Of a stretch of 64,000 bases of DNA, positions 34,282 to 55,700 are shown one piece after another. Source of the stretch: Candidatus Nomurabacteria bacterium (lineage in GTDB: Bacteria > Patescibacteriota > Saccharimonadia > Saccharimonadales > HK-STAS-PATE-42); assembly GCA_023898665.1 (NCBI GenBank), contig CP060233.1, forward strand, positions 612,368-676,367, read 5' to 3'. The notes under the pieces are model-generated. The model was not told the origin of the DNA. It did no database searches and saw only the letters and a list, made by a program, of their open reading frames with translations. The translations under genes and the position numbers were made by a program. Position 1 is the first letter of the stretch. Every line of letters begins with the position of its first letter.

Positions 34282-35313
34282 ATGATTTTAGAAAATTTAA
34301 GATTAGTTAACTTCAGAAACTATCCTGATAAAGTTTTTAGACCTAATGATAGTTTAGAAATGATTATAGGACCAAATGGAATTGGTAAAACTAACATACT
34401 AGAGGCGATTCATCTAATCTGCGGGGGCTCTAGTTTTAGATTAAGAAGAGATCTTGAACTTATAAAGAAGGGTGCAAAGTGGGCAAGAATAGAAGCAAAT
34501 TTAGATCTAGATGGTAGAAAAGAAAAAAGAATATTAAAGCTAAGCTTAAATGATGAGGGTAGAATATCTAAGAAACTAGAGATTGATGATACTAACAGAA
34601 TCGCCAGCAAACATCTTTTACCCGTAGTAGTTTTTGAACCCGATCAAATGAGAATAGTAACCGAAGGTCCTGACTTAAGAAGAAGTTATCTAGATGAGCG
34701 AATTTCTTTTTTGGACTTTGAATACTCTAAGAATATTGCTGATTATAAACGAGTAATTTCTCAAAGAAATAAATTACTAAAACTCATTAAGAGGAACGAG
34801 GCAAAAAAAGAAGATCTATTTATTTGGCATGTTAAGCTAAGTGAGCTAGCTGCACCTATTGTACTGGCAAGAAGAAGGTATTTAAAAGAATTAAACGAAA
34901 AACTCCAGAATGATTACAGAAAGATTAGTAAGAAAAAGGATTTAGTATCCTTAGAGTATTTACCAAGTTTCGAAAAAGAAAGTTCTGCCAAATTGAGTAG
35001 TGAGCTCTTTAATAAGCTTGAGGCAGATATTGAAGTTGATATACATGCTGGCTTTACAAGAAGAGGACCTCATAGGGATGATTGGGAGATTAAGCTTAAT
35101 GGTCAGAGTGCGAGTACTGGAGCTAGTCGGGGAGAAATAAGAACTATAGTCCTCAGCCTAAAATTATATGAGTTTGAACATCTAAGAGATAGTTTTGGGA
35201 TAACTCCTTTGATATTACTTGATGATGTAATGAGCGAGCTCGACTCTACAAGAAGGCAGGAGTTATTAGCATTCTTTAAAGATGCTCAGGTTATTATGAG
35301 CGGCGTGGAGTGA
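34282..35313 (+). CDS. recF: DNA replication/repair protein RecF
   Basis: 343 aa. MILENLRLVNFRNY, Walker A GPNGIGKTNILEAI, and Walker B region LILLDDVMSELD. Confidence 0.85.
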   Translation: MILENLRLVNFRNYPDKVFRPNDSLEMIIGPNGIGKTNILEAIHLICGGSSFRLRRDLELIKKGAKWARIEANLDLDGRKEKRILKLSLNDEGRISKKLEIDDTNRIASKHLLPVVVFEPDQMRIVTEGPDLRRSYLDERISFLDFEYSKNIADYKRVISQRNKLLKLIKRNEAKKEDLFIWHVKLSELAAPIVLARRRYLKELNEKLQNDYRKISKKKDLVSLEYLPSFEKESSAKLSSELFNKLEADIEVDIHAGFTRRGPHRDDWEIKLNGQSASTGASRGEIRTIVLSLKLYEFEHLRDSFGITPLILLDDVMSELDSTRRQELLAFFKDAQVIMSGVE

Positions 35314-35339: not shown

Positions 35340-36083
35340 TTAATCGGAATAAGGATAAACACCTCCATCACCATCAAGTTGGTCTTCTTGACTGGAAATA
35401 TACCTACTTCTTTGGAGCTCATTAGGATAAGACAAAACAACTTCATCAAGATTTATTCCTGCTTTAGTTATCTTTTCTTTTACTTCTGCATTATATTTAT
35501 CGAGCTTTTTTAAATAATCTGGCAACTCTTCATCAATTTTTTTTATATCAAGAAGATTGATGGATATTATTAGCGTATCCCCCAACTCATAACTAATTTT
35601 GTAGTGCTCATTATTCTCTGAAGCAAGTTTGACTAAACCTGGATACTTTTTTTGTATAAAATCACTCTCATCAATATTTGCATCTGAAGAGTTATTATTT
35701 GGTTCATCCAAAACGGTAAAGTTAAATACAAAATTATTTATTTCTTTTTCTCCAAATTTTAGATTAGGTATTAAAATATTATATTTTGCAGATTTATTAA
35801 AGTATTCAAGTGGTACAATTATTATTTGTTTTTCGTCTACTAGCACATCTATATTTACCAAGGGTTCAATTTTAATTTCTTTGATAACTTCATCTTTGTT
35901 TGTAATAACTTTATTAAAGTTAAGTCTAATGGCCGAGAACTCAGCTATATCTCCATCATTTGGGGTCGATCCTGTAAGTCTAGGTTTCGATGACATATTA
36001 ATGTAGAAAATGACTAATACTAGTGTGAGTAATAGACCCATTGATATGTATATCTTTTTGTAAGTACTATTAAGCTTGATCAT
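35340..36083 (-). CDS. hypothetical N-terminally anchored protein, last gene of the VirB4 cluster
   Basis: 247 aa. One TM (IYISMGLLLTLVLVIFYI) followed by a segment that looks like an Ig-like fold (TGSTPNDGDIAEFSAIRLNFNKVI). Confidence 0.45.
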   Translation of the reverse strand: MIKLNSTYKKIYISMGLLLTLVLVIFYINMSSKPRLTGSTPNDGDIAEFSAIRLNFNKVITNKDEVIKEIKIEPLVNIDVLVDEKQIIIVPLEYFNKSAKYNILIPNLKFGEKEINNFVFNFTVLDEPNNNSSDANIDESDFIQKKYPGLVKLASENNEHYKISYELGDTLIISINLLDIKKIDEELPDYLKKLDKYNAEVKEKITKAGINLDEVVLSYPNELQRSRYISSQEDQLDGDGGVYPYSD

Positions 36084-36106
36084 GTATATATATTATCATT
36101 TATTAA

Positions 36107-38191
36107 TTAGTCTTCAGTTACTCCACTATCTTGTTCTGTAGGAGCATCTGTTAAAGGGTTAAAATCGTTTTCTGGCTGTACAGTTGATGCGTCTACATAT
36201 CTACCAAAACCGACTAAACTTGGTATGGCCCTGTAGTCTTGATATGTTCTTTTGCTAACTGAGTTACTTGAGTTACCTTCAACAGTAGATATCTGGTATC
36301 CGTTTACAGCAACAACAATACCTATATGGCCAATGCCTCCGTCCAGTTGCGCACCAGAACTGCCTCTGCCTTTAACGAATATGTCCCCAGGCTGAGGCCT
36401 AAATTGCTCTTTCCACGAAAAAAAGAATTTATTATCTTCGAACCACTGACCTACTCCTTTGGCTAGGGCGCCCCCACCAATAGGCTGCCCAGCCTCTTTA
36501 AATACCCAGTTTACAAAAACTGCGCACCAAGGAATGCCACAAGATTGATTTGTTTCGCTAAAATATTTTTCGATTTCATCACCACAATTTGATGATCCTT
36601 CTTCTTTTCTACCTACTTCTGCCTCAGCGATCTGAACCACTGTGCCTCCGGATCCAGATGAATTGCAATCACCTAATCCACCACTCGATGAATAGTCTGC
36701 ATAACTCTCAATATTTTCATCCCCGGCATAACCAGCAAGCTTATTAATCATGTTTTTTACGTCACTGAAATATTGCTCTGTATTATTTTCTACAGGCGGA
36801 GCATAAGCATATATGTAGTCTCTGAGGTTTCCAGGCCAACTACCATTATCAATTTTTCGCCGAGTATAAACAAACCAACTGTCTTCTCCTGAGAGGCTAT
36901 CTTGCCATGACGACCAAGCGTAAACTAGCCTCCCTCCTGAAGAGAGGACATGCGGTTGTTGTGAAGTTGCCGTTCTTCCAAAGGCATTGTTACTACCAGG
37001 TATTAAGTGCCAAGCTTTTGGATTATCATTGTTCATTGCAAAGTTATTCTCTACGCTTAAGTGTGCTATAGCTAAAAATGGATTTATATTTGAAGCCTTA
37101 CCTCCTTCAATAAAAGAGGACCCAAGCCCGCTAAAAGGTGAGGTGGAGTTTTTTTCTTTTTCTTTCTCAGATATTAATTTATTAATGGCACCCGAGAGCT
37201 GCTCATTTGAGAAATTATTTAAAGCAGTAGGATAGACAATCTCGTAATATGGATTTGATTGCCCAGGAGCTGGAGTGGTTGTATTATTCGAGTCGTTATT
37301 ATTGATGTTATTCTGAGCATCGGTTGGATTGCTCTGTGTATTTATAGGTATAGATGCGAGTGTTGCGTTAACTATTGAGTTTGCATAGTCATCTTCTGAT
37401 ATATTATTCTGTCCTGCTTCTAAATATACCCATGGTACTTTTGAGAGTAATTGGACATTCGATATATTACCACCCGATTTACCTTCATCTGTCCTGCTAT
37501 TAAAATCGTTATCCTTTACTACAACTTTGTTATTTTCAGTTTTGTTTCTTTCATTCTTAAATACTTCTGAGTAAAGCTGGCTTTTTAAGGCAATATCATT
37601 CAAAGAAAAGGCTACTTTTTCTCCGTTTGGCTTTTCTCTGTAAAGTCCGACTCGTTGAGGGTATATCTCTCCAACTTCGCCCCAATTTGTATCAGTGCCC
37701 ATTGTATGTATGCTCACTGCTAAATCCGCGCTGGCATCATTCGCAATTTTTGCACGATCCTGATGGCTTACTGTATCTGTCTCGGTTTGTTTTGTAAGCA
37801 GCACTGAATATCCTTTTTGTTCTAAAAGAGATTTTGCTTTTGTCGCTACTCTAAATACAATTGCTCTTTCCCCTCCATTGGCTCCAGTATTGTTTGTTGT
37901 TGTAGTAGTAAGAAGGCCGCTGGCGGGATCGATTGACTCACCATTAGTCCCATCATGGCCGGGGTCAAGTACAACTGTTTTGTCCCCTGAATCTATTTGA
38001 TTGCCGTTATTATTAGATACGCAAATACTCTCACCGTCTGCATTTGTCCATTCCGAGCTCCTAAGTATGTCATTTTTTTCGTTTTTTGTAGCTGCATACA
38101 CTGACATCTCAGGTAGTATGGCTACTACTAGCAGTGCGAATAATAGCGGGAACTTAAGTATTTTTTTTATCATCATAGTGCTATCTTCCAT
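36107..38191 (-). CDS. secreted three-domain peptidoglycan hydrolase (Amidase_3 + glucosaminidase-like + CHAP)
   Basis: 694 aa with a signal peptide. Amidase_3 pattern: VVLDPGHDG ... ASADLAVSIH. Central FLAIAHLSVENNF ... SNNAFGR resembles GH73/FlgJ-type glucosaminidase. C-terminal CHAP: IPWCAVFVNWVF ... GDIFV ... GHIGIVVAVNG ... VEGNS. Confidence 0.8.
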   Translation of the reverse strand: MEDSTMMIKKILKFPLLFALLVVAILPEMSVYAATKNEKNDILRSSEWTNADGESICVSNNNGNQIDSGDKTVVLDPGHDGTNGESIDPASGLLTTTTTNNTGANGGERAIVFRVATKAKSLLEQKGYSVLLTKQTETDTVSHQDRAKIANDASADLAVSIHTMGTDTNWGEVGEIYPQRVGLYREKPNGEKVAFSLNDIALKSQLYSEVFKNERNKTENNKVVVKDNDFNSRTDEGKSGGNISNVQLLSKVPWVYLEAGQNNISEDDYANSIVNATLASIPINTQSNPTDAQNNINNNDSNNTTTPAPGQSNPYYEIVYPTALNNFSNEQLSGAINKLISEKEKEKNSTSPFSGLGSSFIEGGKASNINPFLAIAHLSVENNFAMNNDNPKAWHLIPGSNNAFGRTATSQQPHVLSSGGRLVYAWSSWQDSLSGEDSWFVYTRRKIDNGSWPGNLRDYIYAYAPPVENNTEQYFSDVKNMINKLAGYAGDENIESYADYSSSGGLGDCNSSGSGGTVVQIAEAEVGRKEEGSSNCGDEIEKYFSETNQSCGIPWCAVFVNWVFKEAGQPIGGGALAKGVGQWFEDNKFFFSWKEQFRPQPGDIFVKGRGSSGAQLDGGIGHIGIVVAVNGYQISTVEGNSSNSVSKRTYQDYRAIPSLVGFGRYVDASTVQPENDFNPLTDAPTEQDSGVTED

Positions 38192-41100
38192 TTATTGACC
38201 AATGCCAAGCTTCTTTAGGGTAGTTCTTAAATCCATATTTAGCAGCGTTTCCCGCTAACCATTTGTAGCAAGAAGTTTGCCTAGTACTACAGCCCTTAAA
38301 GTCAATAGCGACTCCCCCTTCATGATTTGAAGTTCCTGGTCGAGCTGTTGGTGGGCTGCATTCTCCTGGAGGTCTTTCAATTATTGCGTAATTAGAAGAT
38401 CCACAATTTCTTCGTCTTAAGTCTACTTGCTCATCGTAGGACCTAAATGCATTACCGTCCAGCTTAACACCATCTGCAGCGGCAGCTTTAACCATGTTAT
38501 CTACATTAGTACAGTACTCAGCACGTATATCAATTGAAGTGCCCGGAACAACCTGCACTTCTATATCGTTTTTTGGCTTGCCAGAATTTGGTCTCGTAAC
38601 CGCTACAGACTCACACTTGCCAAGAGCACCTTCGAGAGGCTGATCATTAACATCTGATGTACCACCGTTATCTGAACTGGTTGTATCAAAGTTCTCGAAT
38701 CCACATATTTTGTCATCTATTCTGAAGTTTGTACCCATTGTATCCGTAACCGTGCAAAGTAGCCTGCAGCCGTCTATCTCAGTAGATGTACCTGACCCAT
38801 CTGGATCTTTCAAATTAGGATCGGTTCCGTCCTCAGCAGCCTTTCTTTTGGCATCAATAGCAGAAGTCTGATCTTCGCATCTTTCTGCATCAGACAGGTC
38901 TTGAATCTGCTCTTCCGTAAGTCCATCAATATATGAATCTGGTATGCCATAGCAAATAACCCCAAAGTCTGTAATAGCCTGGCCTTTTTTATTTTCTTGG
39001 GTACATGTATCTGAGTTAGAATCTGCAAATGCAGTTTTTGACCCCCCGCTAAATGCAAGTGCTATGTTATTAAATGGATTTATAAAGTTATTATATCCAC
39101 CTTCAGTTACAGCCATACCGATGAATCCTGAAGCTAAAGTATCCGAATGAGATATATCGAACATCCTATCAAAGAATGAACTTGAAGCTAACTCCTCCCG
39201 CCTTTCGGCAGCTATAGATTGGTTAAGGCTTGCTGCTTGATCTGGAGTAAGAGGTATACCACCAAGACCCCCGCCGTCTCCGACTCCCTTGGCAAAAGCA
39301 GATTGTTGTACTTCGCCTCCACCGATCCAAGCATCAACCATTCTTGCACCCGATTTTGTGTCAGTTTTTAATCCGCCTTGTAGTAACTCTGGTCCAGCTA
39401 AGCTTTGCCCCGTGATCAAAATAGTGAGGCCGTTTGATATCCAGCCTGTAACATTTTGCATAAGTGCTTTTATAGGCGGAATCTCTGCTATAAAATTAGC
39501 AACTCTATCTAAGCTTAACAAGCTAATTAATCTTGAGAATCCACCTTGAGCACCGTGATATGTTTCTTGAAGACTTGGACAAAATGGAAGGTCTGGTTGA
39601 CTATTAATTCCTCCGCTTGCAACTAAAGATAGAATACATCCGCTAGTGTAAGTACTTAAGCCCTGGTATGCTCCCGCGCCGTTCTGTACGAATGAGAATA
39701 ATGAACTTAATGGGTTTAAGGGATCGTAATCTACTCTGTGATTTTCGCAAGTATTTTGGTCGTCCGCCATACCAACTTGTTTTAAATTTGATGGATCCCC
39801 CTTAGAAAAAATCTCTTCGATTCCGGAGCCAAGACTCGCAGGATCAGAGATGGATATATTAGGCTTACAGTTATACCCTGCAGGCTTTTTTCCGTTTATT
39901 GACTTGTAGCCGACCATATCTGCAAATAATCTGCTACTACCAAGTCCATTAATTAAACTTAGTCTCATATCTCCAGCTGACTGAAGATCTACATAACTTC
40001 TTTTTTCTTCACTAATTGTTGTATCTAAAAGATTTGCAACATCAAGCATCGATTGAGCGTTCTGCGAGCTAATAAAGTGCTGCAGTGTTCCGTCTGTTGC
40101 AAGATCTAAGGCATCCAGTACAGTCAGAGCTAACATAACCCAACCAATTACAGGGATCGCTTTTGTTGCAGTTTCTCCGAATTTTTCTGCTAAAGTCTCA
40201 TTTAGCTTATTAATTAGATCTTTGACGATCTGTACTTCAATCTCTTGAAGGCTTTTACCACCATATTTATCTAAAAGTTCAGTTACTTTTTCAACGCCCA
40301 ATCTATCAGCAGCAGCTGCGATCGCCCTATTCTCTTTAATTAGGTTACTAGGACTTGCCCTTGAAGATTCTCCACTTAGCAGTATCTCAAGAAGCAAACC
40401 GACCCTCGCATTACCTTTATTTACTACAAATTTAGTTAGGTATTTTCTAAAATCAGAAGTTGCCGTTTTCTTTAGCGCTGTTATGTCGTCAAGCTTTTTA
40501 GCAACTTTTTGTGGAGTAAAGACTCGGCCGGGTAAGCCAAGATCTCTTAAATAGCCCGCTTTTAAGTTCCTTCGCTTTAAGTACTGATGCCACTTAGTGT
40601 CGTTTTTAAGTGATGCTTTCATCTCCTTTCTTATAATTAAAGATGCCTCCCTTCTGCCAACAAACTCTGCAGTGTCTAAGTCTGGGACACCAAATTTTCC
40701 AGACGCTTGAAAATTTCCGCCTTCAGATTCTGGCCTGTTTATTGTGACCTTATAGGGTCTACCAGAATCTCTTTGTGAGTAATCATACTCAACATTAACA
40801 CCATTTCTAGAGAGAGAATCTTCTATTTTGGCGGCTTGCCAGTCGTTAAAAAGCTGAGATAAACGAGTGTCTCTTTCTTCGATTCTAGGCCTACATGCAT
40901 TGATTCCGGCGACATTTCCGGCAAGATTATAAGCGGTTTTACATTTTTCTACAGCTACCCTATTCTTCATATAAGAATAGAGGACTTTTTGGCCCATCTT
41001 ATCGACAGCACGTTCGGTATAGGCAGAAACTTTGTTTTGTATCCAACTTTGCATTGCATGAGGAATAACCCCAAGTATTCCTATTGGCACTGCCACAGCT

Positions 41101-41636
41101 ATAGCAAAAACTGCACCGAGAGCCAGCATTCTAACTCGCTTTCTTGCTCTACCACGAATATTAAGTCTACTAACTTTCTGACTTTCTACTTGATCAATCC
41201 TTTCTCCGATATCTTTAATCCACTGTTGATTATATTTATCGATGGTATCACTTAATTTTTGCGCTTCTGAATTACTCGAGATAGTTTTTGTTTTAGTACT
41301 CTTTTTTTTACTTGATTCTCCATCCGCTTCTTGCGACGATGAACCTATTGTCGGCCTAAAGCCTGATTGTTTAGTGCTTGGACTTGTTTGTTTTGCTGTA
41401 CCAAAATTATCATTATAAAAATCATCAACAGGATTAACATTAGAGCTACTAGATTCGGCTTCGGCTAGATCTTTAACTGCGAGAACGCCATCTCTTAAGC
41501 CAGCTTCCATTTGATCTAATTCGGCCAATTCTTTTGGGGTTATAGAAGTGTCACCATCTGGCGCATTGGTAAATGGCATTGGTCTCTTAGGTTTTACACC
41601 AGGTAGGTTACGGTTATTAGTCTGTTGTTTAGCCAT
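38181..41636 (-). CDS. large membrane-anchored protein with C-terminal M15 (VanY-type) peptidase domain
   Basis: 1151 aa. Disordered N-terminus and TM segments near VRMLALGAVFAIAVAVPIGILGV and AIPVIGWVMLALTVLDALDLA. C-terminal FRSYDEQVDL ... PGTSNHEGGVAIDF ... AKYGFKNYPKEAWHWS matches the VanY/M15B pattern. Confidence 0.75.
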   Translation of the reverse strand: MAKQQTNNRNLPGVKPKRPMPFTNAPDGDTSITPKELAELDQMEAGLRDGVLAVKDLAEAESSSSNVNPVDDFYNDNFGTAKQTSPSTKQSGFRPTIGSSSQEADGESSKKKSTKTKTISSNSEAQKLSDTIDKYNQQWIKDIGERIDQVESQKVSRLNIRGRARKRVRMLALGAVFAIAVAVPIGILGVIPHAMQSWIQNKVSAYTERAVDKMGQKVLYSYMKNRVAVEKCKTAYNLAGNVAGINACRPRIEERDTRLSQLFNDWQAAKIEDSLSRNGVNVEYDYSQRDSGRPYKVTINRPESEGGNFQASGKFGVPDLDTAEFVGRREASLIIRKEMKASLKNDTKWHQYLKRRNLKAGYLRDLGLPGRVFTPQKVAKKLDDITALKKTATSDFRKYLTKFVVNKGNARVGLLLEILLSGESSRASPSNLIKENRAIAAAADRLGVEKVTELLDKYGGKSLQEIEVQIVKDLINKLNETLAEKFGETATKAIPVIGWVMLALTVLDALDLATDGTLQHFISSQNAQSMLDVANLLDTTISEEKRSYVDLQSAGDMRLSLINGLGSSRLFADMVGYKSINGKKPAGYNCKPNISISDPASLGSGIEEIFSKGDPSNLKQVGMADDQNTCENHRVDYDPLNPLSSLFSFVQNGAGAYQGLSTYTSGCILSLVASGGINSQPDLPFCPSLQETYHGAQGGFSRLISLLSLDRVANFIAEIPPIKALMQNVTGWISNGLTILITGQSLAGPELLQGGLKTDTKSGARMVDAWIGGGEVQQSAFAKGVGDGGGLGGIPLTPDQAASLNQSIAAERREELASSSFFDRMFDISHSDTLASGFIGMAVTEGGYNNFINPFNNIALAFSGGSKTAFADSNSDTCTQENKKGQAITDFGVICYGIPDSYIDGLTEEQIQDLSDAERCEDQTSAIDAKRKAAEDGTDPNLKDPDGSGTSTEIDGCRLLCTVTDTMGTNFRIDDKICGFENFDTTSSDNGGTSDVNDQPLEGALGKCESVAVTRPNSGKPKNDIEVQVVPGTSIDIRAEYCTNVDNMVKAAAADGVKLDGNAFRSYDEQVDLRRRNCGSSNYAIIERPPGECSPPTARPGTSNHEGGVAIDFKGCSTRQTSCYKWLAGNAAKYGFKNYPKEAWHWSINGR

Positions 41637-41659
41637 CTAATAAATTGACTCTATTAATT

Positions 41660-43591
41660 TTAGTTTTGAGGTGAAACTCCTTGGTTTGGAGATTGTATTG
41701 AAGCATTACTATTAACAGCCTCAAACCTTTGTTCTGGGTTATCTTGCTGAAGCTGATATGATGCATCTGCCATAGCAGATATTTCTTTTGCTTTGGCAAG
41801 CTGTGCTGGATCAGTTGTAATAATCTCAGTCTCTGTTGGGCTAGCCTCTACCTTTACATGTACATGGTTGGAGCCAGCAAACAGTAAACCTTGACCGACA
41901 GGGAACTGTGTTAACCTTTTCTTCTCTTCGTCAGTTAGCTTGAAGACCTGCTGAAGGATATCTACTGCAGATGTAGACTGTTTAAGAAGTAGTTGCATCG
42001 ATGCGTTAGAGACAATAGCACGACCAGCTTGATCGGTCATCATATCCTCAACATCCTGAGTTACGGTAGTTAAGCCTAAGTAATACTTACGGGCTCTTTT
42101 TGCCAAAGAGAACATAAAGTCTGCAGAATCTTTATATTTTAACAACTGCCAAGCTTCATCAACAATTAAGTTTCTTCTCTTTTTATCGCTCTTAGTTTTG
42201 TTCCAGATGTGGTTCAAGACAATATACATCGCTACCGGACGTAATTCTTCTTCTAAGTCTCTAATATTAAATACGACTAAGTTATTATTAATATCAATAT
42301 TGCTCTGTTGGGAGAAGATCCCTGCAAATGTACCTGTAATGTATTTACGAATCATTTGGGCCATAGCCGGACCAGTACCTTGCATATGAGCAAGCGTCTC
42401 GTAGAGATCTGATATGGTTGGAGGCCGAGATTGGTGAGTTAGTGGATCTGCAGTTATACCTGCACGAGCGTAAGTATCAATTAAAGCTTGGTCTAGATCT
42501 GCTTCCATTACTGGGTTAACTTGCCCACCCATCATCAATCTAAATAATCCGTGAAGCATGATTAAGTTTGCCCTTAGGGCGTTATCGGCTTCTTCTACAT
42601 CAACGACTCTTGGTAAATCAAAAGGATTAATTCTAGTAGTAGAACTTAGGCTTAAGCGGATATATGTACCGCCTACAGCCTCGGCTAGCTTTTGATACTC
42701 GTTCTCCGGATCGATAATAACTACTTCCGTTCCCATCATCATGCTTCTAAGGGCTTCGAGTTTTACAGCGAAGGATTTACCTGCTCCTGATTTTGCAAAG
42801 ACTACCATATTGGCATTTTCTAATGAGAATCTATCAAAGATAACTAGACCGTTATTATGCATATTAATTCCATACAAGATTCCGTTTTCTTGGGTAAGAT
42901 CGGCAGAGGTGAATGGGAAGCTGGTAGAGAGTGCTCCGGTATTCATGTTGCGTCTTACTTGTAAATCATCAGTGTTTTGAGGAAGTGATGAGTTAAAGCC
43001 AGCCTCCATTTGGGAGCTTGCAACTTTTGAGTAAACTAATTGTTGGCCTAAGATTGTCTCAACCTTATGCTGTATAAAATCTAGTTCTTCTAAACTTTTG
43101 CCGTAAATCGTTAGATATAAACCAAAACGGAAAAAGCGCTCTTCGCCAACTTGAAGAGCGTCCCGAAGTTGCTCAGCATCTGAGATTGCTGCTTGCTTGC
43201 CCGGATCACGCGTTCGACCTTTTTCTTGGTCAATCATAATCCCAGCTTCGAGTTGTGTGACTTTTTTTCTTAAGTTTTCTAATACGATCTGACTTGCAAC
43301 GGGATATATAAACATACTTAGATCAAGTTCTTCGTCTATATTAACTATCGGAGACAACCAGCCGGTAAAAATTTGTCTAGGATAGCCAAAGACGTACATC
43401 GTTCTGGCAAAATAAGTACCAAGCTTAAATTCACTAGAGGAGAACTCTAGGCTGCTTGGAGCCACGAAATCTCTAAGTTCGGTAATTCCTCTTAAAAAAG
43501 CTGCTTCAACTTCTTGTTGTTCTCTTATTCTTTGCTGTTGAGCAATGTCGATTGGGTCATTCCGTTCTTGATTTTTATTAAATAATGCCAT
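41660..43591 (-). CDS. VirB4/TraE-type type IV secretion ATPase
   Basis: 643 aa. Walker A FAKSGAGKSF, Walker B NLIVDEAWQLL, and an N-terminal domain with the layout of Gram-positive conjugation VirB4 homologues. Confidence 0.85.
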   Translation of the reverse strand: MALFNKNQERNDPIDIAQQQRIREQQEVEAAFLRGITELRDFVAPSSLEFSSSEFKLGTYFARTMYVFGYPRQIFTGWLSPIVNIDEELDLSMFIYPVASQIVLENLRKKVTQLEAGIMIDQEKGRTRDPGKQAAISDAEQLRDALQVGEERFFRFGLYLTIYGKSLEELDFIQHKVETILGQQLVYSKVASSQMEAGFNSSLPQNTDDLQVRRNMNTGALSTSFPFTSADLTQENGILYGINMHNNGLVIFDRFSLENANMVVFAKSGAGKSFAVKLEALRSMMMGTEVVIIDPENEYQKLAEAVGGTYIRLSLSSTTRINPFDLPRVVDVEEADNALRANLIMLHGLFRLMMGGQVNPVMEADLDQALIDTYARAGITADPLTHQSRPPTISDLYETLAHMQGTGPAMAQMIRKYITGTFAGIFSQQSNIDINNNLVVFNIRDLEEELRPVAMYIVLNHIWNKTKSDKKRRNLIVDEAWQLLKYKDSADFMFSLAKRARKYYLGLTTVTQDVEDMMTDQAGRAIVSNASMQLLLKQSTSAVDILQQVFKLTDEEKKRLTQFPVGQGLLFAGSNHVHVKVEASPTETEIITTDPAQLAKAKEISAMADASYQLQQDNPEQRFEAVNSNASIQSPNQGVSPQN

Positions 43592-43604
43592 AACTCTATT
43601 TATT

Positions 43605-44510
43605 TCATTGTTCGCTTGCTTTCTCGAGATGCACTTGGCGTGCTGAGCCTTCTCCTTTTGAGACGACTGGGCTACTTAAGCTTTCCATATCAAGCAGTGT
43701 TTGTCGTGTGGCAGTATCAGGGTTGTAATAATTGTAAAATAACTCGATTAGCTCAGAAGTACTTAATGGGGCAGCAGTAACTCCCATTTGGAGTAATCCA
43801 TTAACAACTCCTTGTACACGATTTCTAAGCTCAACTTTCGATTTCTCCAGCTTCTCTTCGTCCATTCTAATTGGCCCGTGGGATTCTTTTTTAAATAGTT
43901 TAGAAAATGCGGTTGCTGTAACATTTTTATCTTTAGTTCTGTCATCTTCTCCAGGGACTAAAGGCACAACTACATAGAACTCTTTACTCATAATGTTCGT
44001 TTGCGAAACAAGATTCGAAATAAAGTAAATATAATCTTCCATTAATAACCCTAAGAGCATATTGTCTGTCTCTCCTCTAATTTTAGCGAGTTTTTCGAGG
44101 TATGGGCCCATGTCGATTTTTCTAGATCTAACTAAAATCTGGACATTAAAATATAGTGAGTTCAAGAAAGATTGATAAGCATACTCGACTGACTCTTGTT
44201 CAGCAATGCTCATTAGATCGTAATTTATTGACTTGGCTTTAACTACGGCACGAAAACTGCCATCGTTCATAATAACTAAACCGTCTCTAATCTCTGCGAA
44301 CTTCAGTAAGTTTTGAGAGCTATACCGATTAGACTTATCTTTTACTGCTTTATCGAATTGGGCCTCGTGATCAGCTAAGTAACTATCAATGTCGCTTGGA
44401 CCTTTTTTTTGTGGATTAAATACTCCCTTTAGACCTCCGCCAGAGTTATTACCACCCTGGTTGCTTTGGCTTGTGTTTGTTTGATTGCTTTGTGGGCCAA
44501 CCGGATTCAT
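43605..44510 (-). CDS. VirB4-cluster protein, soluble, no NTPase motifs
   Basis: 301 aa and first gene of the cluster. Gly/Asn/Gln-rich N-terminus. The segment IRDGLVIMNDGSFRAVVKAKSINYDLMSIAEQESVEYAYQSFLNSLYFNVQILVRSRKIDMGPYLEKL resembles, by eye, the non-catalytic N-terminal region of VirB4-family proteins. Confidence 0.4.
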   Translation of the reverse strand: MNPVGPQSNQTNTSQSNQGGNNSGGGLKGVFNPQKKGPSDIDSYLADHEAQFDKAVKDKSNRYSSQNLLKFAEIRDGLVIMNDGSFRAVVKAKSINYDLMSIAEQESVEYAYQSFLNSLYFNVQILVRSRKIDMGPYLEKLAKIRGETDNMLLGLLMEDYIYFISNLVSQTNIMSKEFYVVVPLVPGEDDRTKDKNVTATAFSKLFKKESHGPIRMDEEKLEKSKVELRNRVQGVVNGLLQMGVTAAPLSTSELIELFYNYYNPDTATRQTLLDMESLSSPVVSKGEGSARQVHLEKASEQ

Positions 44511-44649
44511 GCTTAGCTTTTTGTATCTAATATTATTTTTGGCTAGGCCATCTACCCTCTAGCCTCAGCAGCTTATATTCCACTGATTTATACCATATGA
44601 TTATGGCATAAGCAGGATATGTTTTCCAGTTATTTGACTAGTCTTTTAT

Positions 44650-45063
44650 CTAGTTATATAGTTTAGCTTTTTTAAATAATTCATTAAGCTGTGAATCCAG
44701 TTCTTTATAACTTATTTTTGCAACCGTATCCGTATGTACAAAAACCATCGTCAACTGATCATCTTTAAAATCGGATTGGTTAATTCTAATCCACTCAAAT
44801 ACACGTCTTCTAATTCGGTTACGCACTACAGCTGATTTGGAGACTTTTTTGCTCACAACAACTGCAAACTTAGGAGCTAGCTTCATTTCAGAATTAAGCT
44901 TAGGTCGGGTATTAACTAGTTTTTTATAGCGTGATTGAATAAAATCGTGTTCACTGGGCAAAGTTCTAAGGCTAAATGACTCACTCCTTGCTGGTAAGCC
45001 TTTTTTTAAGACGATCTGTATAAAACCGTCCCAACTCTTGAATCTTAATTGTTTTTGTACCAT
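44650..45063 (-). CDS. rnpA: ribonuclease P protein component
   Basis: 137 aa. VSKKVSKSAVVRNRIRRRVFEWIR is the RnpA RNR motif, and the gene sits directly downstream of rpmH. The true start may be internal. Confidence 0.75.
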   Translation of the reverse strand: MVQKQLRFKSWDGFIQIVLKKGLPARSESFSLRTLPSEHDFIQSRYKKLVNTRPKLNSEMKLAPKFAVVVSKKVSKSAVVRNRIRRRVFEWIRINQSDFKDDQLTMVFVHTDTVAKISYKELDSQLNELFKKAKLYN

Positions 45064-45091: not shown

Positions 45092-45229
45092 TTAGTAGCT
45101 GAGTTTTTTGCGACCTTTTAGACGGCGAGCTTTTAAGACTGCACGTCCACCAGCTGTAGACATTCTTTTTCGGAAACCGAATTTACGCTTAGCTTTTTTT
45201 CTTTTTGGTTGGAAAGTTCTTTTTGACAT
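45092..45229 (-). CDS. rpmH: 50S ribosomal protein L34
   Basis: Not in the ORF track because it is only 45 aa. My translation is [45 protein letters not shown], a classic L34 sequence. Confidence 0.9.
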
Positions 45230-46623: not shown

Positions 46624-47325
46624 ATGAAGATAAAGTTACAAAAACCGAAGAATTTAGCACAAAATTTTGACTTTAAAAAAAGTGTTGATAAAGCACACAA
46701 GAATATACATAGAAGAAGTCTAACATCTACGAGAAGACATATTGTAGGCAAAGCTGACTCGATTAAGAATCTAAGGGCTAGAAAATTAGTATTTTCTTGG
46801 AGCGCAAAATTTTTAATTGTTTTAGTACTTGGCTTATTAAGTTACTCTAAACTTAATTCTGCTGGAAGGTTCACAGGATTTGTTGGCGGGGGAGAAGTTA
46901 TTGCTGGCATAGAAGATCCGAACGAACAAATTAATTTGAACCCGTTGACACTAAGTACTCCTGCAGAATCCGCAGTTGGCAGATTAATTTACAGCTCTAT
47001 TTTAAAGTACGACCAAGAAGGAAAGCTGAAAGGAGATTTAGCAAAAAGCTATTCTATTGAGGATTCTGGCAAGAAGATTAGAGTTAGACTAAAAGATAAT
47101 ATAAAATGGCATGACAAAAAGAGTATTGTTGCTGACGATATTGTTTTTACTTTTACTAAGCTTAAAGATATTAGAGTAAATAGCAGTCTTAGAGATTCTC
47201 TCAATGGTGTTGATGTTGTTGCTCTTGATAACAAAAATTTTGAGATCACTAGCCCTAGAGTGGTGAGTGGTTTAGATGACTTGCTAACAAAAATCAGGAT
47301 CGCTCCCAAACATATTTTTGAATGA
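46624..47325 (+). pseudogene. family-5 (OppA/DppA-like) solute-binding protein, N-terminal fragment ending at an in-frame TGA
   Basis: 233 aa. N-terminal TM anchor and KWHDKKSIVADDIVFTF, the typical SBP_bac_5 motif. It is in the same frame as the next ORF, separated only by TGA 47323-47325. Confidence 0.7.
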
Positions 47326-47370
47326 GTAGACAGCGATAAGATATCAACCGTAAATTACAATAAGATCCCC

Positions 47371-48426
47371 GTGGGGAGTGGTTCCTTTGAAATCGCTGGA
47401 GATGTAACATCAAGTGCAAAAACGACATTGGGTATTAATGGACCCGGAAGTTTTCAGCAAGTAAGTTTAGTACCCAATATGAGCTACTATGATAATTCTG
47501 CTCAAGCAAAACTAACTTTTAGAGTTTTTAATACTCGAGAAGACCTAAACTCTGCCTTTAATAATGGCTCAATCGAGATGTATATCGGTAGCGGGAATCA
47601 AATTAATAAGAATGAGGATTCAGAAGAAGCTGAAATAAAATTAAGTTCTGGTGTATTTAGTTTTTTTAACTTAAAAAGCCCCTATTTATCGGACATAAAA
47701 TTGCGCAGAGCTCTTTCGGGATATATTAATAGAAAATCATTGAGTATTTTAAATAGTGGAGTTAAACCACTTTATTCCCCAATTTTAGAAGTAGGTGATA
47801 CTGAACAGCCTGTCATTAATATTGAGGAAGCAAAAAAACTTATAGCAGAAGCCGGATATACTCTTGACACAAACTCAAATCAATTTATTAAAGATGGGCA
47901 GCCCCTTAGGCTTAATCTTGTTACTGGCGACTCAGATGAATACTCTAGAGTCGTTGACGAGCTTGCAAAAACTTGGAAGGAAATTGGAGTTAGCCTTGAG
48001 ATCATAAAAGCTAAATCAAGTGATTTGCAGTCTAATTATTTTGTTAATAAAGGATACGACATTCTTGTGTATGGTATATCACTTAATCAAGCGACCGAAC
48101 CTTATGCTTACTGGTCGAGTGATGCGGCCAACCCTAAAGGTTTAAACTTCAGTAATTATAAATCGCCGGCAAATGACGCCGATCTTGATGTAGCTAGATC
48201 TAAACTTAATCCAGCAGAAAGAAATGTAAGGCTAGAGAGATTTGTAAAAAGATGGAAAGAGGATGTACCTGCCGCTGCTCTTTATGTGCCAAGTCTAAAA
48301 GTAATGTATAGGTCAGGGTCGGTTCAGCCTGATGTTAATCAGCAGACCTATGTCAGCGGCTTCACAGATGCTTTTGATCTATTTAATCAGATAAAGGGTC
48401 AAAAGAAGAAGTTATATCAAAACTAG
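47371..48426 (+). pseudogene. family-5 solute-binding protein, C-terminal fragment
   Basis: 351 aa. It begins at VGSGSFEI, which corresponds to the PxGTGPY motif of the family. Translating through the TGA gives HIFE*VDSDKISTVNYNKIPVGSGSFEI with no other stop. Confidence 0.7.
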
Positions 48427-51862: not shown

Positions 51863-51938
51863 GGCGCTATAGCTCAGTTGGTAGAGCAGAGGCCTGAAGA
51901 GCCTTGTGTCCCTGGTTCAAGTCCAGGTGGCGCCACCA
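51863..51938 (+). tRNA. tRNA-Phe (anticodon GAA), CCA encoded
   Basis: Hand fold: acceptor GGCGCTA/TGGCGCC, D arm GCTC-AGTTGGTA-GAGC, anticodon arm GAGGC-CTGAAGA-GCCTT, T arm CCTGG-TTCAAGT-CCAGG. Confidence 0.9.
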
Positions 51939-51953
51939 AGTTCTTTTTGCTAT

Positions 51954-52029
51954 GCGGGTGTAGCTCAGCTGTTAGAGCGCTTCCTTGCCAAGGAAGAGGT
52001 CCCGGGTTAGAGTCCCGGTACCCGCACCA
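51954..52029 (+). tRNA. tRNA-Gly (anticodon GCC), CCA encoded
   Basis: Hand fold: acceptor GCGGGTG/TACCCGC, D arm GCTC-AGCTGTTA-GAGC, anticodon arm CTTCC-TTGCCAA-GGAAG, T arm CCGGG-TTAGAGT-CCCGG. Confidence 0.85.
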
Positions 52030-52048
52030 ATATAGATTTTCAAACATT

Positions 52049-52072
52049 AGAGACCAAACGGTCTCTTTTTGT
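52049..52072 (+). terminator. intrinsic terminator after the tRNA pair
   Basis: AGAGACC-AAAC-GGTCTCT followed by TTTTTGTTT. Confidence 0.6.
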
Positions 52073-52091
52073 TTGAAGTAAATCTAAGTCC

Positions 52092-52535
52092 TTAAATCCA
52101 GTCAAAAAATCTATATGACCAATCTCTAAATCCACTCACACCTGGATTGTCACCATCATACTCTAGCTCAACATATTCTTGCGGCACATATTTATAACCA
52201 TGTTCGTCTAGAAGCTCTAAAATTATGGAGCGCAGTGACTTATCTAATCCATCTTCAGTCTCAAAAAGACATACCATATTTCCGTAGCTGCTAAACTTCA
52301 ACCATGCGTATGGGTTATAAAAATATACCTGTGAATGGAAACTGGCATCCTGTACTTCTCCTCCAGTATCGGTATTAAACTCTTGCCCTGTCTTTTCCTC
52401 TAGATCTTTCACGTACAACTTGAACTTCGCTACAGCAGCGCTTCTGTCAAAACCGTTAGGCTCTTCTGTACCACCTAATAATTCCATATCGTGAAAAAGT
52501 TGAATAGCTTCTTCATTGTTCTGAACCGTACTCAT
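52092..52535 (-). CDS. hypothetical acidic protein (island gene)
   Basis: 147 aa uninterrupted ORF with no motif I recognise. Confidence 0.45.
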   Translation of the reverse strand: MSTVQNNEEAIQLFHDMELLGGTEEPNGFDRSAAVAKFKLYVKDLEEKTGQEFNTDTGGEVQDASFHSQVYFYNPYAWLKFSSYGNMVCLFETEDGLDKSLRSIILELLDEHGYKYVPQEYVELEYDGDNPGVSGFRDWSYRFFDWI

Positions 52536-52575
52536 GAGTGTTATTATATCCTCCTCGTCTTAGGGCAGCAACGAT

Positions 52576-52720
52576 TTAGATCAAATCAGCAGATAGATTA
52601 AACACCTTCGCCAGATTTATTAACTTTTGATTATCAAATTGTTCAATTGCAGATGTTTGAAATACGTCAACTATCCTGCACCAATTTATTGCATAACAGT
52701 ATAAACTTGCACCTTTTTCG
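52576..52720 (-). pseudogene. remnant of an XRE-family helix-turn-helix gene
   Basis: The C-terminal part DVFQTSAIEQFDNQKLINLAKVFNLSADLI looks like the second half of a Cro/C1 HTH domain. The N-terminal half of the track ORF (MCFPVLPFCQLCFHSS...) does not look like protein. Confidence 0.3.
52677..52706. repeat. repeat R1, copy a
   Basis: TGCACCAATTTATTGCATAA (52677-52696) is identical to 55627-55646. The next ~10 nt are also similar (cagTATAAAC versus taTATAAAC). Confidence 0.8.
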
Positions 52721-52744
52721 GGTGGATTTTCTGCTATTGAGGAG

Positions 52745-53478
52745 TGAAAACAGAGCTGGCAAAATGGAAGGACTGGGAAACACATTTGTGGTGGTTCTGG
52801 GCCACTTTCGCCTACAGAACAGGAGGTTTATCAACCTCTGTCGTGGTTACGGTGAAAAGCCTGCTGACGGTCTTCTTGTCGCAACACAATCAATTCTAGT
52901 GCTGTGAGAACGCAATACTGAATACTGATGGTTCGCCAGCCGAGATGTGCGGCAATGGGCTACGGTGTCTTGCAAAGTTTGCCAGGGCCTGAAGGACTTG
53001 TTAATAAAGCTAGTTTTGTTGTTCAGACTGATGCGGGACAATTGAGGTTCGCTGCGATGATAGCGACGAAGAATCTGGTCGAGGCGCAGGCTGGCAAAGT
53101 AGCAGTTTCTGATAAGCCGATAAATATCCACGTGTGAGAAGTTTCACTGCAAATGTTGGCAACCCACATGCGGTGACGTTTGTGGATGACTTAGAGTCAG
53201 CGCTAGTTACAACTTCGACCTAAGGTTGAAGTAGATAACTTCCCAAATAAGACGAATGTTGAGTTTTGTCCAAGTGTTGACCAGAACAATATCATCCAGA
53301 ACATGGAACGAGGATGGTGAAACACTGCTTGTGGTACAGGCATGACAGCTGCCTCAGCTGTATTCGTTGAATAGGTCATGGTGAGTACCACGGTGGAAGT
53401 TCGTGAGGCAGGGCTAAGCTCTGGGTTGATGAAAATGGCTTTACACGGATGCGTTAGGTCCAGCAACATTTAGCTAGT
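52745..53478 (+). pseudogene. dapF: diaminopimelate epimerase pseudogene
   Basis: DapF hallmarks are spread over different frames with stops: KMEGLGNTFVVV (GNDF box), [22 protein letters not shown] (first catalytic Cys) near 52927-52992, NVGNPHAVTFVDDLES near 53153-53200, ERGW*NTACGTGMTAASAV (second catalytic Cys) near 53305-53350, and GPATFS* at the end. One sampled line is about 52 % G+C. Confidence 0.75.
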
Positions 53479-53526
53479 AGATAACCTTGTTTATATCTAC
53501 TCGGCTCTTTCCGATGTCGTGTATCG

Positions 53527-53583
53527 TAAAACTACCGCCCTCAATCACCCACACAAAAAGTTTAAGTACATTCTGTAGAGTTA
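53527..53583. repeat. repeat R2, copy a
   Basis: A 57-nt segment about 80 % identical (hand alignment) to 56498-56554. On the minus strand it reads TLQNVLKLFVWVIEGGSF... Confidence 0.75.
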
Positions 53584-53604
53584 CACCAGTCTGCTTATGC
53601 TTAT

Positions 53605-54162
53605 TTATCTGAGGCCCAGGGGTCTTTTTTTATATTCAGGATCAATATCTACTCTTACTTTGCCGTCATCATCCGAGCTAGTAGTAACCCGCTTGAAGCC
53701 ATGCTTCTCATAGTAGTGAACTGCCCTTTTGTTACTTTCGAATACTCCTCCCCAGAGAATAATTCTTTCCTTGCCAAACTTTTTAGCAACGTCTTTGATG
53801 ATTGGCATTAACTTTCCTCCTAGACCAAGGTCCTGATACTTATCAGAAAGAGTTATACCAAACCTACAATCTCTTTCTTCGGTTAACTCGTACCCAGCTT
53901 CTTTAAATCGTGTTAAATCTCCTCCTGGAAGACCAAAACTAAACTCAAGAAGTCCTACGGTCTCTTGGTCCGATTCTACCACTAGTCTTAGTTTGTCATA
54001 TTTATTTATGGCATCGCACAGCTCCTTTGCCATCACTTCGTCATAAGTATCAAAAGTACTGAATTCTCTAGTATCACTAGAAAGGTTGGCTAAGAACTCT
54101 CCTAGCATCTCAATATCTTCATTGACCAAGGGTCTTACTGCCAATGCTGGACCATCGATCAA
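53605..54162 (-). CDS. GNAT family N-acetyltransferase
   Basis: 185 aa. Motif A YQDLGLGGKLM and motif B NKRAVHYYEKHGFKRV. Confidence 0.8.
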   Translation of the reverse strand: MIDGPALAVRPLVNEDIEMLGEFLANLSSDTREFSTFDTYDEVMAKELCDAINKYDKLRLVVESDQETVGLLEFSFGLPGGDLTRFKEAGYELTEERDCRFGITLSDKYQDLGLGGKLMPIIKDVAKKFGKERIILWGGVFESNKRAVHYYEKHGFKRVTTSSDDDGKVRVDIDPEYKKRPLGLR

Positions 54163-54261
54163 TTCTACTTCGTAGTTTACTTGTGAAGGATCTTCAAAGA
54201 TGGAATTTAGGGTTATTATTAATAAGATATTAACACAGGGGTCTGTTATGATAATCCTTAT

Positions 54262-54978: not shown

Positions 54979-55481
54979 GCTAATATCTTGTTATAAAACT
55001 CATACTTAGCGGCTTGGTATTCCCTGAAAGGCTTGCCGTTTGCATCTGACTTTAGCTTTTCGTATTCATCTTTTAATTCACTATTATTCTTGAGCAGTTC
55101 GAATACTCTTATCTGCTCAGCCATGGAAGGAGTAGAAGGGTCAGTTAGATAAAGCTCTACCTCAACACCCTCTCTTTCAAACATCCACTCAACGTTATCT
55201 TCGTGTTTATGGGTTGGTTCTCCAAATAACTCTATCAGTCTATCTAGATACATATTGAAGTCTTCTTTAGGATGGAGCATATACATGTCTAAGTCACCCT
55301 GACCAGATATACCAAGTCCAGTAGCCCCCATTAGCCTTATGTCTATATCTTCGGAGATGGCTTTGATGGCAGAGATTATCTGATCTGCTACTCTTTGTAA
55401 CTCTTCAGTATAAGGTTTGATATGGACCAACCTGTCTTCTGGGATAGTCTTTAAATAGTTAGCTTGTGGTTTGGTTAACAT
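54975..55481 (-). CDS. nucleotidyltransferase-fold protein (GrpB-like)
   Basis: 168 aa. MGATGLGISGQGDLDMYML fits the hG[GS]...D.D NTase motif, and the C-terminal REYQAAKYEFYNKIL resembles GrpB family ends. Confidence 0.5.
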   Translation of the reverse strand: MLTKPQANYLKTIPEDRLVHIKPYTEELQRVADQIISAIKAISEDIDIRLMGATGLGISGQGDLDMYMLHPKEDFNMYLDRLIELFGEPTHKHEDNVEWMFEREGVEVELYLTDPSTPSMAEQIRVFELLKNNSELKDEYEKLKSDANGKPFREYQAAKYEFYNKILA

Positions 55482-55490
55482 AACTAAATC

Positions 55491-55655: not shown

Positions 55656-55700
55656 GCCTTCCGAGGTGTTTTTTTACCGCCTTAGTGGTATTATCAACTT

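Follow-up and report, generated by a model that had tools for sequence, protein, structure and literature searches.

Which task does a VirB4-centered operon fulfill in a putative epibiont when it is loaded with cell-wall-cleaving domains and no relaxase or coupling protein lies in view? This question is raised by a gene cluster at positions 35340–44510 of a 64,000-nt stretch of DNA (in the following called the window, in which all coordinates are given unless a related locus is named) from a Candidatus Nomurabacteria bacterium (GenBank assembly GCA_023898665.1, contig CP060233.1, positions 612,368–676,367). The original prediction, which had been made from the DNA letters, suspected an epibiont-type organism, and this agrees with the assignment of the genome to the Candidatus Saccharimonadales. 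We conclude that the cluster very probably constitutes the VirB4-proximal half of a relaxase-less chromosomal type IV secretion system (T4SS), which is typical of Saccharibacteria, minute bacteria growing on other bacteria, as well as of further Patescibacteria, and descends from the Gram-positive (MPF_FATA) conjugation machinery. The cluster does not constitute a mobile element, and DNA conjugation is most likely not among its functions. The system itself is already known, and the suspicion that it is non-conjugative has been published as well. New here are the conservation of VirB4, the fast divergence of a 1151-aa envelope protein encoded next to it, and the diversity of the subsequent hydrolase slot: the wall-cutting genes are swapped between close relatives, whereas the motor gene is hardly changed.

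An Operon-Like VirB4 Cluster in a Window Without Mobility Genes

The five genes of the cluster are all located on the minus strand in an operon-like arrangement, whereby the intergenic gaps amount to at most 23 nt or the genes overlap (Table 1). The coordinates thus reproduce the five co-directional, tightly spaced genes of the original prediction as well as the position of rpmH–rnpA directly upstream of them. The TrsD-like gene lies directly upstream of virB4 with a gap of 13 nt. The VirB4 protein matches the Pfam families P-loop_TraG (3.9e-28) and CagE_TrbE_VirB (5e-5), as well as AAA_10 and DUF87, and passes the cut-off of the NCBIfam model conju_CD1110 (377 vs. 325 bits), of which positions 185–734 are covered. 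The Walker A (G269–S273) and Walker B (D478–E479) motifs are both intact, in line with the earlier assignment as a VirB4-type ATPase. Outside of the Patescibacteria, the nearest plasmid-borne virB4 genes are found in Firmicutes and Actinobacteria and encode proteins with 29–39% identity. The 301-aa protein matches NCBIfam TrsD (1.6e-6), aligns to positions 6–119 of the CD1110 VirB4 model (2.4e-6) and has a precomputed match to PF26593 (TraC-like). Because of these three matches, it can be regarded as a TrsD-type relative of the VirB4 N-terminal domain.

The absence of mobility genes was checked by inspection of the translations of the window open reading frames (ORFs) of at least 70–90 aa and by Pfam scans of 20 unassigned ORFs located outside the cluster. 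No coupling protein, relaxase or integrase was identified among the ORFs of the whole 64-kb window. Likewise, no oriT- or att-like repeats flank the cluster, since the repeats around it are short and of chance quality. Thus, the lack of VirD4, relaxase, integrase and oriT-like repeats, which had been noted for the vicinity of the cluster, extends to the entire window.

Table 1. Coordinates of the cluster genes, their predicted domains and the neighboring features in the window (aa, amino acids; TM, transmembrane).
Feature	Coordinates	Strand	Evidence or remarks
TrsD-like protein, 301 aa	43605..44510	(-)	soluble, no TM segment
VirB4 ATPase, 643 aa	41660..43591	(-)	CD1110/MPF_FATA type
M15-ended envelope protein, 1151 aa	38181..41636	(-)	TM segment, Cys-rich middle, C-terminal M15 peptidase
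VanY/M15 (LdcB-like) peptidase domain, residues 1036–1146 of the 1151-aa protein	38199..38531	(-)	Pfam VanY 2e-11; NCBIfam LdcB 5.5e-5
Three-domain secreted hydrolase, 694 aa	36107..38191	(-)	Amidase_3 + GH73-like + CHAP
Amidase_3 domain, residues 73–260 of the 694-aa protein	37412..37975	(-)	Pfam 3.6e-15
GH73-like (glucosaminidase-like) domain, residues ~359–493; putative catalytic E381; NNAFG motif	36713..37117	(-)	sub-threshold Pfam match and PDB profile
CHAP domain, residues 551–640; C556, H622, E638/N640	36272..36541	(-)	Pfam CHAP 4.1e-11; TIGR02594 7e-11
Anchored partner, 247 aa	35340..36083	(-)	N-terminal TM segment and weak Big_5 match
Intergenic region, 139 nt; candidate operon promoter TGGAAA-17-CATAAT with TG at 44628–44600	44511..44649	(-)	consensus scan, weak evidence
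rnpA (RNase P protein), upstream	44650..45063	(-)	Pfam Ribonuclease_P 4.7e-18
rpmH (ribosomal protein L34), upstream	45092..45229	(-)	L34 by inspection of the translation
recF, convergent, downstream	34282..35313	(+)	RecF by inspection of the translation

The Envelope Protein and the Secreted Hydrolase

The gene following virB4 encodes the 1151-aa protein, whose hydropathy profile shows a strong TM segment at residues 173–191 behind an Arg/Lys-rich stretch and a second conserved hydrophobic helix at residues ~490–512. The N-terminal tail (residues 1–170) is poorly conserved and the middle region is rich in Cys, with several near-invariant Cys columns on either side of the second hydrophobic helix throughout the family. 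These Cys columns suggest that the protein is largely extracytoplasmic. The M15/VanY peptidase that had been proposed for its C-terminus is supported by the profile matches given in Table 1, and the residues H1105, D1112 and H1145 (SxHxxGxAxD and ExxH motifs) are kept in 8 of 9 relatives, whereby the ninth lacks the motifs at those columns. For the non-peptidase part of the protein, 154 relatives were found at E ≤ 1e-3 among 1.84 billion representatives; they are mostly 800–1300 aa long and 24–30% identical. When the C-terminal peptidase was scanned in 46 family members, VanY was detected in 14, M23 in four and DUF2272 in one of them. A hidden Markov model (HMM) of the family matches the position-equivalent proteins of three of the related loci compared here (L001 and L006–L015), namely those of L013 (2e-199), L015 (1e-38) and L014 (1127 aa; 5e-24). 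A second word-indexed homologue search with the alignment of the 1151-aa protein returned the identical 9 proteins, a genome scan yielded two loci only, and a metagenome scan gave no matches.

The 694-aa protein has a signal-peptide-like N-terminus, and its gene probably starts at position 38176, which gives a product of 689 aa. Its structure model reaches a predicted local distance difference test (pLDDT) score of 64 overall and of 80–93 in the amidase domain. In this domain the zinc ligands H79, E108 and H162 align to those of the solved amidases AmiA (8c2o) and Ami1 (7agl), and a Foldseek search with the model returned the amidase fold of Rv3717, Ami1 and CwlV with template modeling scores of 0.70–0.74. 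A further residue, E258, is a putative catalytic residue as judged from its motif. The CHAP domain contains C556 and H622 and gives weak fold matches to PlyC and to the CHAP domain of phi812. Thus, the Amidase_3 and CHAP domains of the original prediction stand.

The assignment of the middle domain as a glucosaminidase module stands in part. Its match to Pfam PF01832 (E = 2e-4, 22.5 bits) stays under the cut-off of 30.2. A profile built from four middle-domain sequences was compared to the PDB, whereby the top three hits were all GH73 enzymes (LytB 4q2w/7pj3 and 5wqw), although with weak E-values of 0.06–0.16. The same profile aligned E381 to the Glu of the LES motif of LytB, which we take to be the GH73 catalytic Glu, and NNAFG to NNFFG. 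In addition, the domain is homologous (3e-20) to the N-terminal domain of P0017, the hydrolase in the equivalent slot of L014. Its model shows pLDDT values of 50–80 and has no Foldseek match specific to it. From these alignments, the middle domain is probably GH73-like.

Overall, the catalytic residues of the Amidase_3, CHAP and M15 domains are present upon alignment, and E381 of the GH73-like domain is aligned weakly. In contrast, the claim of four distinct bond specificities could not be upheld, since these are not readable from sequence, and Amidase_3 and CHAP may share a target. A 440-aa partial protein, which is assigned to Candidatus Saccharimonadales at NCBI, is 100% identical to the hydrolase over 63% of the latter. 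The fifth gene encodes a 247-aa protein with an N-terminal TM anchor at residues 11–29 and a weak immunoglobulin (Ig)-like (Big_5) match.

Comparison With Known Type IV Secretion Systems

A conserved T4SS region in Saccharibacteria was first described by McLean et al. (2020; PMC7427843). In Southlakia epibionticum, transposon sequencing revealed that SEML1_0006–0019 form an essential T4SS, which has subunits like those of Gram-positive conjugation systems, pilins and no recognizable coupling protein or relaxase (Wang et al., 2023; PMC10633639). In this locus recF is located on the plus strand ahead of SEML1_0004. SEML1_0004 and 0005 encode anchored or exported Ig-like proteins, SEML1_0006 a 643-aa protein with a glucosaminidase, a phage-tail lysozyme (two lysozyme-like domains) and a Cys protease, SEML1_0007 a 1113-aa protein with a C-terminal Hedgehog/DD-peptidase fold, SEML1_0008 VirB4 and SEML1_0009 a TrsD-like protein, whereby SEML1_0006 to 0009 were each called essential. 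These are followed by PrgI (SEML1_0010), large membrane proteins including a VirB6-like one (SEML1_0011–0013) and pilins (SEML1_0014–0019) (PMC10633639).

By position and architecture, the window cluster appears to be the counterpart of SEML1_0004/5–0009. Both loci encode, in identical order, a TrsD-like protein, VirB4, a protein of ~1100 aa that terminates in a DD-peptidase, a hydrolase of three domains and one or more small anchored proteins, followed by a convergent recF. Furthermore, the window shares with the T4SS of S. epibionticum and of the Patescibacteria the lack of a nearby relaxase or coupling protein, the ori-proximal core neighbors and the monoderm MPF_FATA ancestry of VirB4. A similar layout is found in L014, where the order PrgI, TrsD, VirB4, 1127-aa protein, hydrolase, recF, dnaN, dnaA resembles that of S. 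epibionticum. The window differs from S. epibionticum in that rnpA–rpmH lie directly before the TrsD-like gene, that dnaA–dnaN are not located beside recF, and that one anchored partner gene (247 aa) is present instead of two. The position of rnpA–rpmH and the lack of adjacent PrgI, VirB6 and pilin genes apply to the clade of the window. The hydrolase combines Amidase_3, GH73-like and CHAP domains, whereas that of S. epibionticum combines GH73, phage-tail lysozyme and Cys protease domains. The arrangement of wall-cleaving domains next to VirB4 had been called unusual. This is the case in comparison to classical Gram-positive conjugation, but not in comparison to S. epibionticum, where a DD-peptidase protein and a three-domain hydrolase follow virB4 in a like manner.

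The VirB4 proteins of Patescibacteria have been placed next to MPF_FATA (Quinonero-Coronel et al., 2025; PMC12102498). In the same survey TrsD was the commonest partner, relaxases occurred in very few genomes and type IV coupling proteins (T4CPs) were rarely adjacent; rpmH, rnpA, dnaA and dnaN were frequent neighbors, and essential peptidase and lysozyme homologues were described downstream of virB4 (PMC12102498). The window presents this picture with a CD1110-type VirB4, a TrsD-like gene upstream, a core location, a peptidase and a hydrolase downstream, and neither relaxase nor T4CP. What distinguishes a conjugative element, namely a relaxase with oriT, VirD4/TcpA, and an integrase with att sites or a variable presence, was not found for the window. 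The earlier suspicion that the cluster is probably not a conjugation machine agrees with the published descriptions of the saccharibacterial T4SS (PMC10633639, PMC12102498, PMC12857230).

A related layout occurs on the megaplasmid of Pontibacillus sp. ALD_SL1 (L016; NZ_CP062975.1, 352–361 kb; locus positions 4477–14030), which was typed as non-mobilizable. It carries a pilin-like gene, a TrsD-like gene upstream of virB4 (6e-23 to the 301-aa protein), a CD1110-type VirB4 (38% identity) and, after virB4, a gene for a 1050-aa TM protein with NlpC/P60-like and M23 motifs, and no relaxase is located nearby. In contrast to the window, no membership of this large hydrolase in the 1151-aa family was detectable, the organism is a free-living Firmicute, and no second hydrolase is annotated adjacent, as the next gene is a convergent hypothetical one. 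The layout of the megaplasmid shows that the placement of a large hydrolase immediately behind virB4 has been inherited within MPF_FATA systems. The Pontibacillus locus itself may be a non-patescibacterial analogue of a relaxase-less, pilin-bearing T4SS.

PrgK of pCF10, TraG of pIP501 and CwlT of ICEBs1 are VirB1-like hydrolases of Gram-positive conjugative T4SS, which presumably clear a passage in the wall for the channel. As in these systems, the window encodes anchored or secreted multi-domain hydrolases beside virB4, whereby a glycan-strand cutter, in the window the probable GH73-like domain, is paired with CHAP, in place of which NlpC/P60 may occur. An export signal or TM anchors and catalytic residues (H79/E108/H162, E381, C556/H622 and H1105/D1112/H1145) in proteins encoded next to virB4 correspond to what characterizes VirB1-like proteins. 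In contrast to PrgK, TraG and CwlT, the window spreads the function over two genes and four catalytic-type domains, whereby Amidase_3 and M15 are additions, and the locus is chromosomal, part of the core and devoid of DNA-processing genes. Moreover, the glycosidase paired with CHAP is GH73-like (sub-threshold) and not SLT, while relatives in the same slot carry SLT or a phage-tail lysozyme.

Alternatively, VirB4 could be the center of a machine for the uptake of DNA or nucleotides that resembles the ComB or Ced type. VirB4 is weakly similar to NCBIfam CedB (1e-15) and CedD (2.6e-5), although far under their cut-offs. Moreover, Saccharibacteria are naturally competent, and the window contains a comEC-like gene (by inspection only). 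However, comEC is dispensable in S. epibionticum while the T4SS is essential, so that the essential role of the T4SS is not competence (PMC12857230). We therefore consider an uptake machine to be very unlikely.

Several observations weigh against the assignment to the saccharibacterial T4SS. Genes for PrgI/VirB3, VirB6-like, VirB8-like and VirB2 pilin proteins are absent from the 64-kb window, whereas they flank virB4 in S. epibionticum and L014, so that a complete apparatus is assumed for the system of the window. The topology of the 1151-aa protein is ambiguous, as it has two hydrophobic helices and yet conserved Cys on both sides, and its AlphaFold2 model from a 9-sequence alignment reaches a pLDDT of 39. 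In addition, the correspondence to S. epibionticum consists of position, architecture and the family HMM match to the S. epibionticum-like locus L014.

Conservation and Descent of the Locus

The original prediction had proposed a separate evolutionary history for the cluster, and a synteny comparison among related genomes was carried out. The gene order rnpA, TrsD-like, VirB4, M15 protein, hydrolase, anchored protein, recF (-), pyk, pgk–tpi is kept in L001, a contig that is 99.975% identical to the window, as well as in L006–L010 and L013, and it is kept in part in L011 and L012. Synteny with the core neighbors rnpA, recF and pyk was found in eight or more relatives. In the window, pyk and then pgk–tpi likewise follow beyond recF. 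A Ribosomal_L34 gene occupies the position of rpmH in L007, and recF of L001 and its orthologues in L007 and L008 give SMC_N and AAA_23 matches.

The region contains no gene that is better conserved than virB4. The identity of VirB4 to the window amounts to 85–95% in the nearer loci and to 72–73% in L014/L015, compared to 60–77% and 38% for recF. For pyk, the identity is 64–81% in the nearer loci, whereby L014/L015 do not cover this gene. In L007, L008 and L010, the aligned part of the TrsD-like protein shows 85–93% identity, and in L013 72%. The 1151-aa protein shows 42–62% identity in the nearer loci and 23% in L013, and in L014 it is undetectable by BLAST; the hydrolase and the 247-aa protein have no orthologue in most of the compared loci. 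In comparison to L007, L008 and L010, the non-synonymous divergence (dN) is 0.054–0.064 for VirB4, 0.15–0.19 for recF and pyk, and 0.39–0.53 for the 1151-aa protein, so that its divergence is 7–10 times faster than that of VirB4. In all genes, the synonymous differences have reached saturation, with a proportion (pS) of 0.82–0.93 for VirB4, as in recF and pyk. Because of this saturation, the high identity of VirB4 reflects purifying selection, and recent lateral transfer as its cause was rejected. From the conserved core flanks and the saturated synonymous sites together, we conclude that the locus is old, belongs to the core genome and has been inherited vertically.

The base composition had been taken as a hint to a different origin, as 42–57% G+C had been read from sampled lines. 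The cluster genes measure 39–41% (the 247-aa gene 29%) vs. ~37% as typical of the window, and several other regions of the window are equal to or above the cluster. The word TAAGCTTA, a palindrome containing the HindIII site, is the commonest 8-mer of the window (38 copies vs. 3.65 expected; examples are located at 62–69, 24144–24157 and 39510–39517), and its near-absence from the cluster, which had been pointed out before, was confirmed with 1 copy vs. 5.4 expected (P = 0.02). A like shortage is seen in four related loci, among them the TAAGCTTA-rich L007, L006 and L013, with 6 copies observed and 17.1 expected in the cluster of L007, 7 and 18.9 in that of L006, and 5 and 15.3 in that of L013. 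The depletion results in part from fewer peptide contexts able to carry the word and in part from a lower realized fraction of these contexts (pooled 0.31 vs. 0.45, P = 0.046). The depletion is not a sign of recent foreign origin.

The distribution of TAAGCTTA among the syntenic relatives is patchy, with 1.2–2.0 copies per kb in L006, L007, L011 and L013 and at most 0.2 per kb in L008–L010, L012, L014 and L015. In the TAAGCTTA-rich lineages, 63–73% of all peptide contexts in which it could be encoded contain it. In this naturally competent phylum, the word may have an uptake-sequence-like character or a link to methylation.

An integrative and conjugative element (ICE), either ordinary or decayed, with a relaxase, a coupling protein and att sites that are located immediately beyond the cluster or were recently lost, would account for the conjugative (CD1110) type of VirB4, the slightly raised G+C and the depletion of TAAGCTTA. 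However, neither mobility genes nor repeats of such an element occur in the 64 kb, the cluster is flanked by the same core genes in relatives down to a recF identity of 60%, and the synonymous sites are saturated. Furthermore, no other gene of the region is as conserved as virB4, contrary to what decay would produce. An ICE is therefore extremely improbable and was rejected. The proposed separate evolutionary history does not hold either, given the conserved neighbors in every relative examined, the saturated synonymous sites and a G+C content only ~3 points above that of the window.

The Hydrolase Slot Varies Between Close Relatives

The gene after the M15 protein always encodes a multi-domain wall hydrolase, whereby its domains vary by locus. 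At least seven architectures occur among the loci fetched, and an eighth is reported for S. epibionticum. The combination Amidase_3, GH73-like and CHAP of the window is found in L001 and L013, while L006, L007, L009 and L010 have Amidase_2 and SLT. Amidase_2 is joined to VanY in L011 and to Phage_lysozyme2 in L012. Phage_lysozyme2 and M23 form the enzyme of L008, and together with a GH73-like domain that of L014. In L015 a GDSL esterase is combined with GH73-like, Phage_lysozyme2 and C39-like peptidase domains.

In L006–L015 the product of the fifth gene always has an N-terminal anchor, yet these products fall into unrelated families, which vary with the type of the hydrolase. The Amidase_2 enzymes are accompanied by a family of ~440 aa (e.g., L007 15456–16793) and the window-type hydrolase by one of ~245 aa (e.g., L013 10096–10833). 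Accordingly, the 247-aa protein of the window is 35% identical to the 245-aa gene product of L013, the locus with the identical hydrolase type, and is unrelated to the ~440-aa family. Because the family of the fifth gene tracks the hydrolase type, slots 4 and 5 behave as a two-gene cassette. Moreover, the joint change suggests that hydrolase and fifth gene product are a functional pair, e.g., an enzyme plus an anchor, regulator or protector.

For the target of these enzymes two explanations were weighed. On the one hand, they might only remodel the epibiont's own wall, either for the passage of the T4SS or pilus or for the separation of daughter cells, whereby the diversity of the slot would reflect relaxed constraint. 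A wall hydrolase directly after virB4 is a general feature of MPF_FATA, as in Pontibacillus (1050 aa) and B. mycoides (“lytic transglycosylase/C40 peptidase”), and a VirB1-type function has been described for such enzymes (PMC12102498). However, this explanation accounts poorly for the retention of two genes with four domains, for the fast turnover of the cassette beside an almost frozen motor, and for the individual essentiality of each gene in S. epibionticum. We consider its chances to be even.

On the other hand, the hydrolases might be deployed with or through the T4SS in order to cut host peptidoglycan at the attachment site, which would result in a conduit for feeding or exchange, and the cassette would set the usable hosts. 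This is in line with at least seven hydrolase architectures among loci whose VirB4 proteins are 72–95% identical, with the joint change of slots 4 and 5, and with the fast divergence of the 1151-aa protein and its variable C-terminal peptidase. The genes are essential for epibiotic growth in S. epibionticum, and a 2025 review, which repeats the T4SS account, speculates on a conduit to the host (PMC12857230). However, the hydrolases of the classical Gram-positive systems (PrgK, TraG and CwlT) have the wall of the donor itself as their target, and their domain composition is variable, too. It could also be that any hole-punching enzyme is neutrally replaceable, and surface exposure to phages or predators could likewise drive fast change. 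Thus, the cassette turnover is compatible with the breaching of a host wall, as speculated originally, but is not a proof of it, and we regard a host-directed function as possible, though doubtful.

Further Features of the Window

A promoter and terminator scan of the cluster region gave site counts not above those of shuffled sequences. Upstream of the cluster, the SBP_bac_5 solute-binding gene at 46624–48426 is split by a TGA stop codon (single-nucleotide polymorphism at 47323), whereas L001 has GGA (Gly) and an intact 600-aa gene; the stop can be explained by a nonsense polymorphism, by recent pseudogene formation or by an error in sequencing. The region 52000–58400 is bracketed by tRNA genes (51863–52026 and 58413–58484), lacks TAAGCTTA and shows the highest gene G+C of the window (0.42–0.48 in two genes measured, 54262–54978 and 55701–56435). 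It contains accessory-type genes for DUF1428 and DUF4389 (Pfam) as well as GNAT- and NUDIX-like proteins (by inspection only), and the contig L001 ends exactly at window position 51899. As a candidate for a strain-variable island, this region is preferable to the T4SS cluster. Within it, ~1 kb at 52536–53604 has 43% G+C and no convincing ORF, and it did not match Rfam at a threshold as lenient as E ≤ 1. Type IV pilus- or competence-related genes are located at 8730–9215 (prepilin-type N-methylation protein, Pfam), 13937–15382 (ComEC-like, by inspection only), 58811–60124 (degenerate T2SSE ATPase, 1.3e-8) and 62807–63886 (strong T2SSE ATPase, 1.9e-81).

Proposed Mechanism and Meaning for Epibiont Biology

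For the saccharibacterial T4SS to which the cluster very probably belongs, we propose that the TrsD-like protein and the VirB4 ATPase form a cytoplasmic motor. This motor would power the assembly of a membrane channel, and probably also that of a VirB2-type pilus, whose genes would lie in another part of the genome. The 1151-aa protein would be anchored in the membrane and expose a long Cys-rich ectodomain tipped by the M15 peptidase, whereas the 694-aa enzyme would be exported by Sec, with the 247-aa anchored protein as its cassette partner. Its GH73-like domain is predicted to cut the glycan strand, Amidase_3 the MurNAc-L-Ala link and CHAP the stem or cross-bridge peptide. Together, the M15 protein and the secreted hydrolase could act as an enlarged equivalent of VirB1, PrgK and CwlT, which opens a path through the peptidoglycan for the apparatus. 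The peptidoglycan concerned would in any case be that of the epibiont's own wall and possibly that of the host's wall at the contact site. It might even be that the two-gene hydrolase cassette, together with the variable peptidase at the tip of the 1151-aa protein, constitutes a swappable host-range module, matched to the peptidoglycan of the host and used by the near-frozen VirB4 motor to break through the wall of the host and establish a feeding conduit; this idea is speculative and rather unlikely.

Among all T4SSs, the saccharibacterial one is the first for which essentiality to its own carrier bacterium has been reported. The window does not add a new kind of system; its interest lies in the contrast between motor and cassette and in the split locus. 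If the cassette type tracks the wall chemistry of the host, this would speak for the breaching of the host wall as the essential function of this T4SS and for the cassette as a genetic determinant of host range in these uncultured epibionts.

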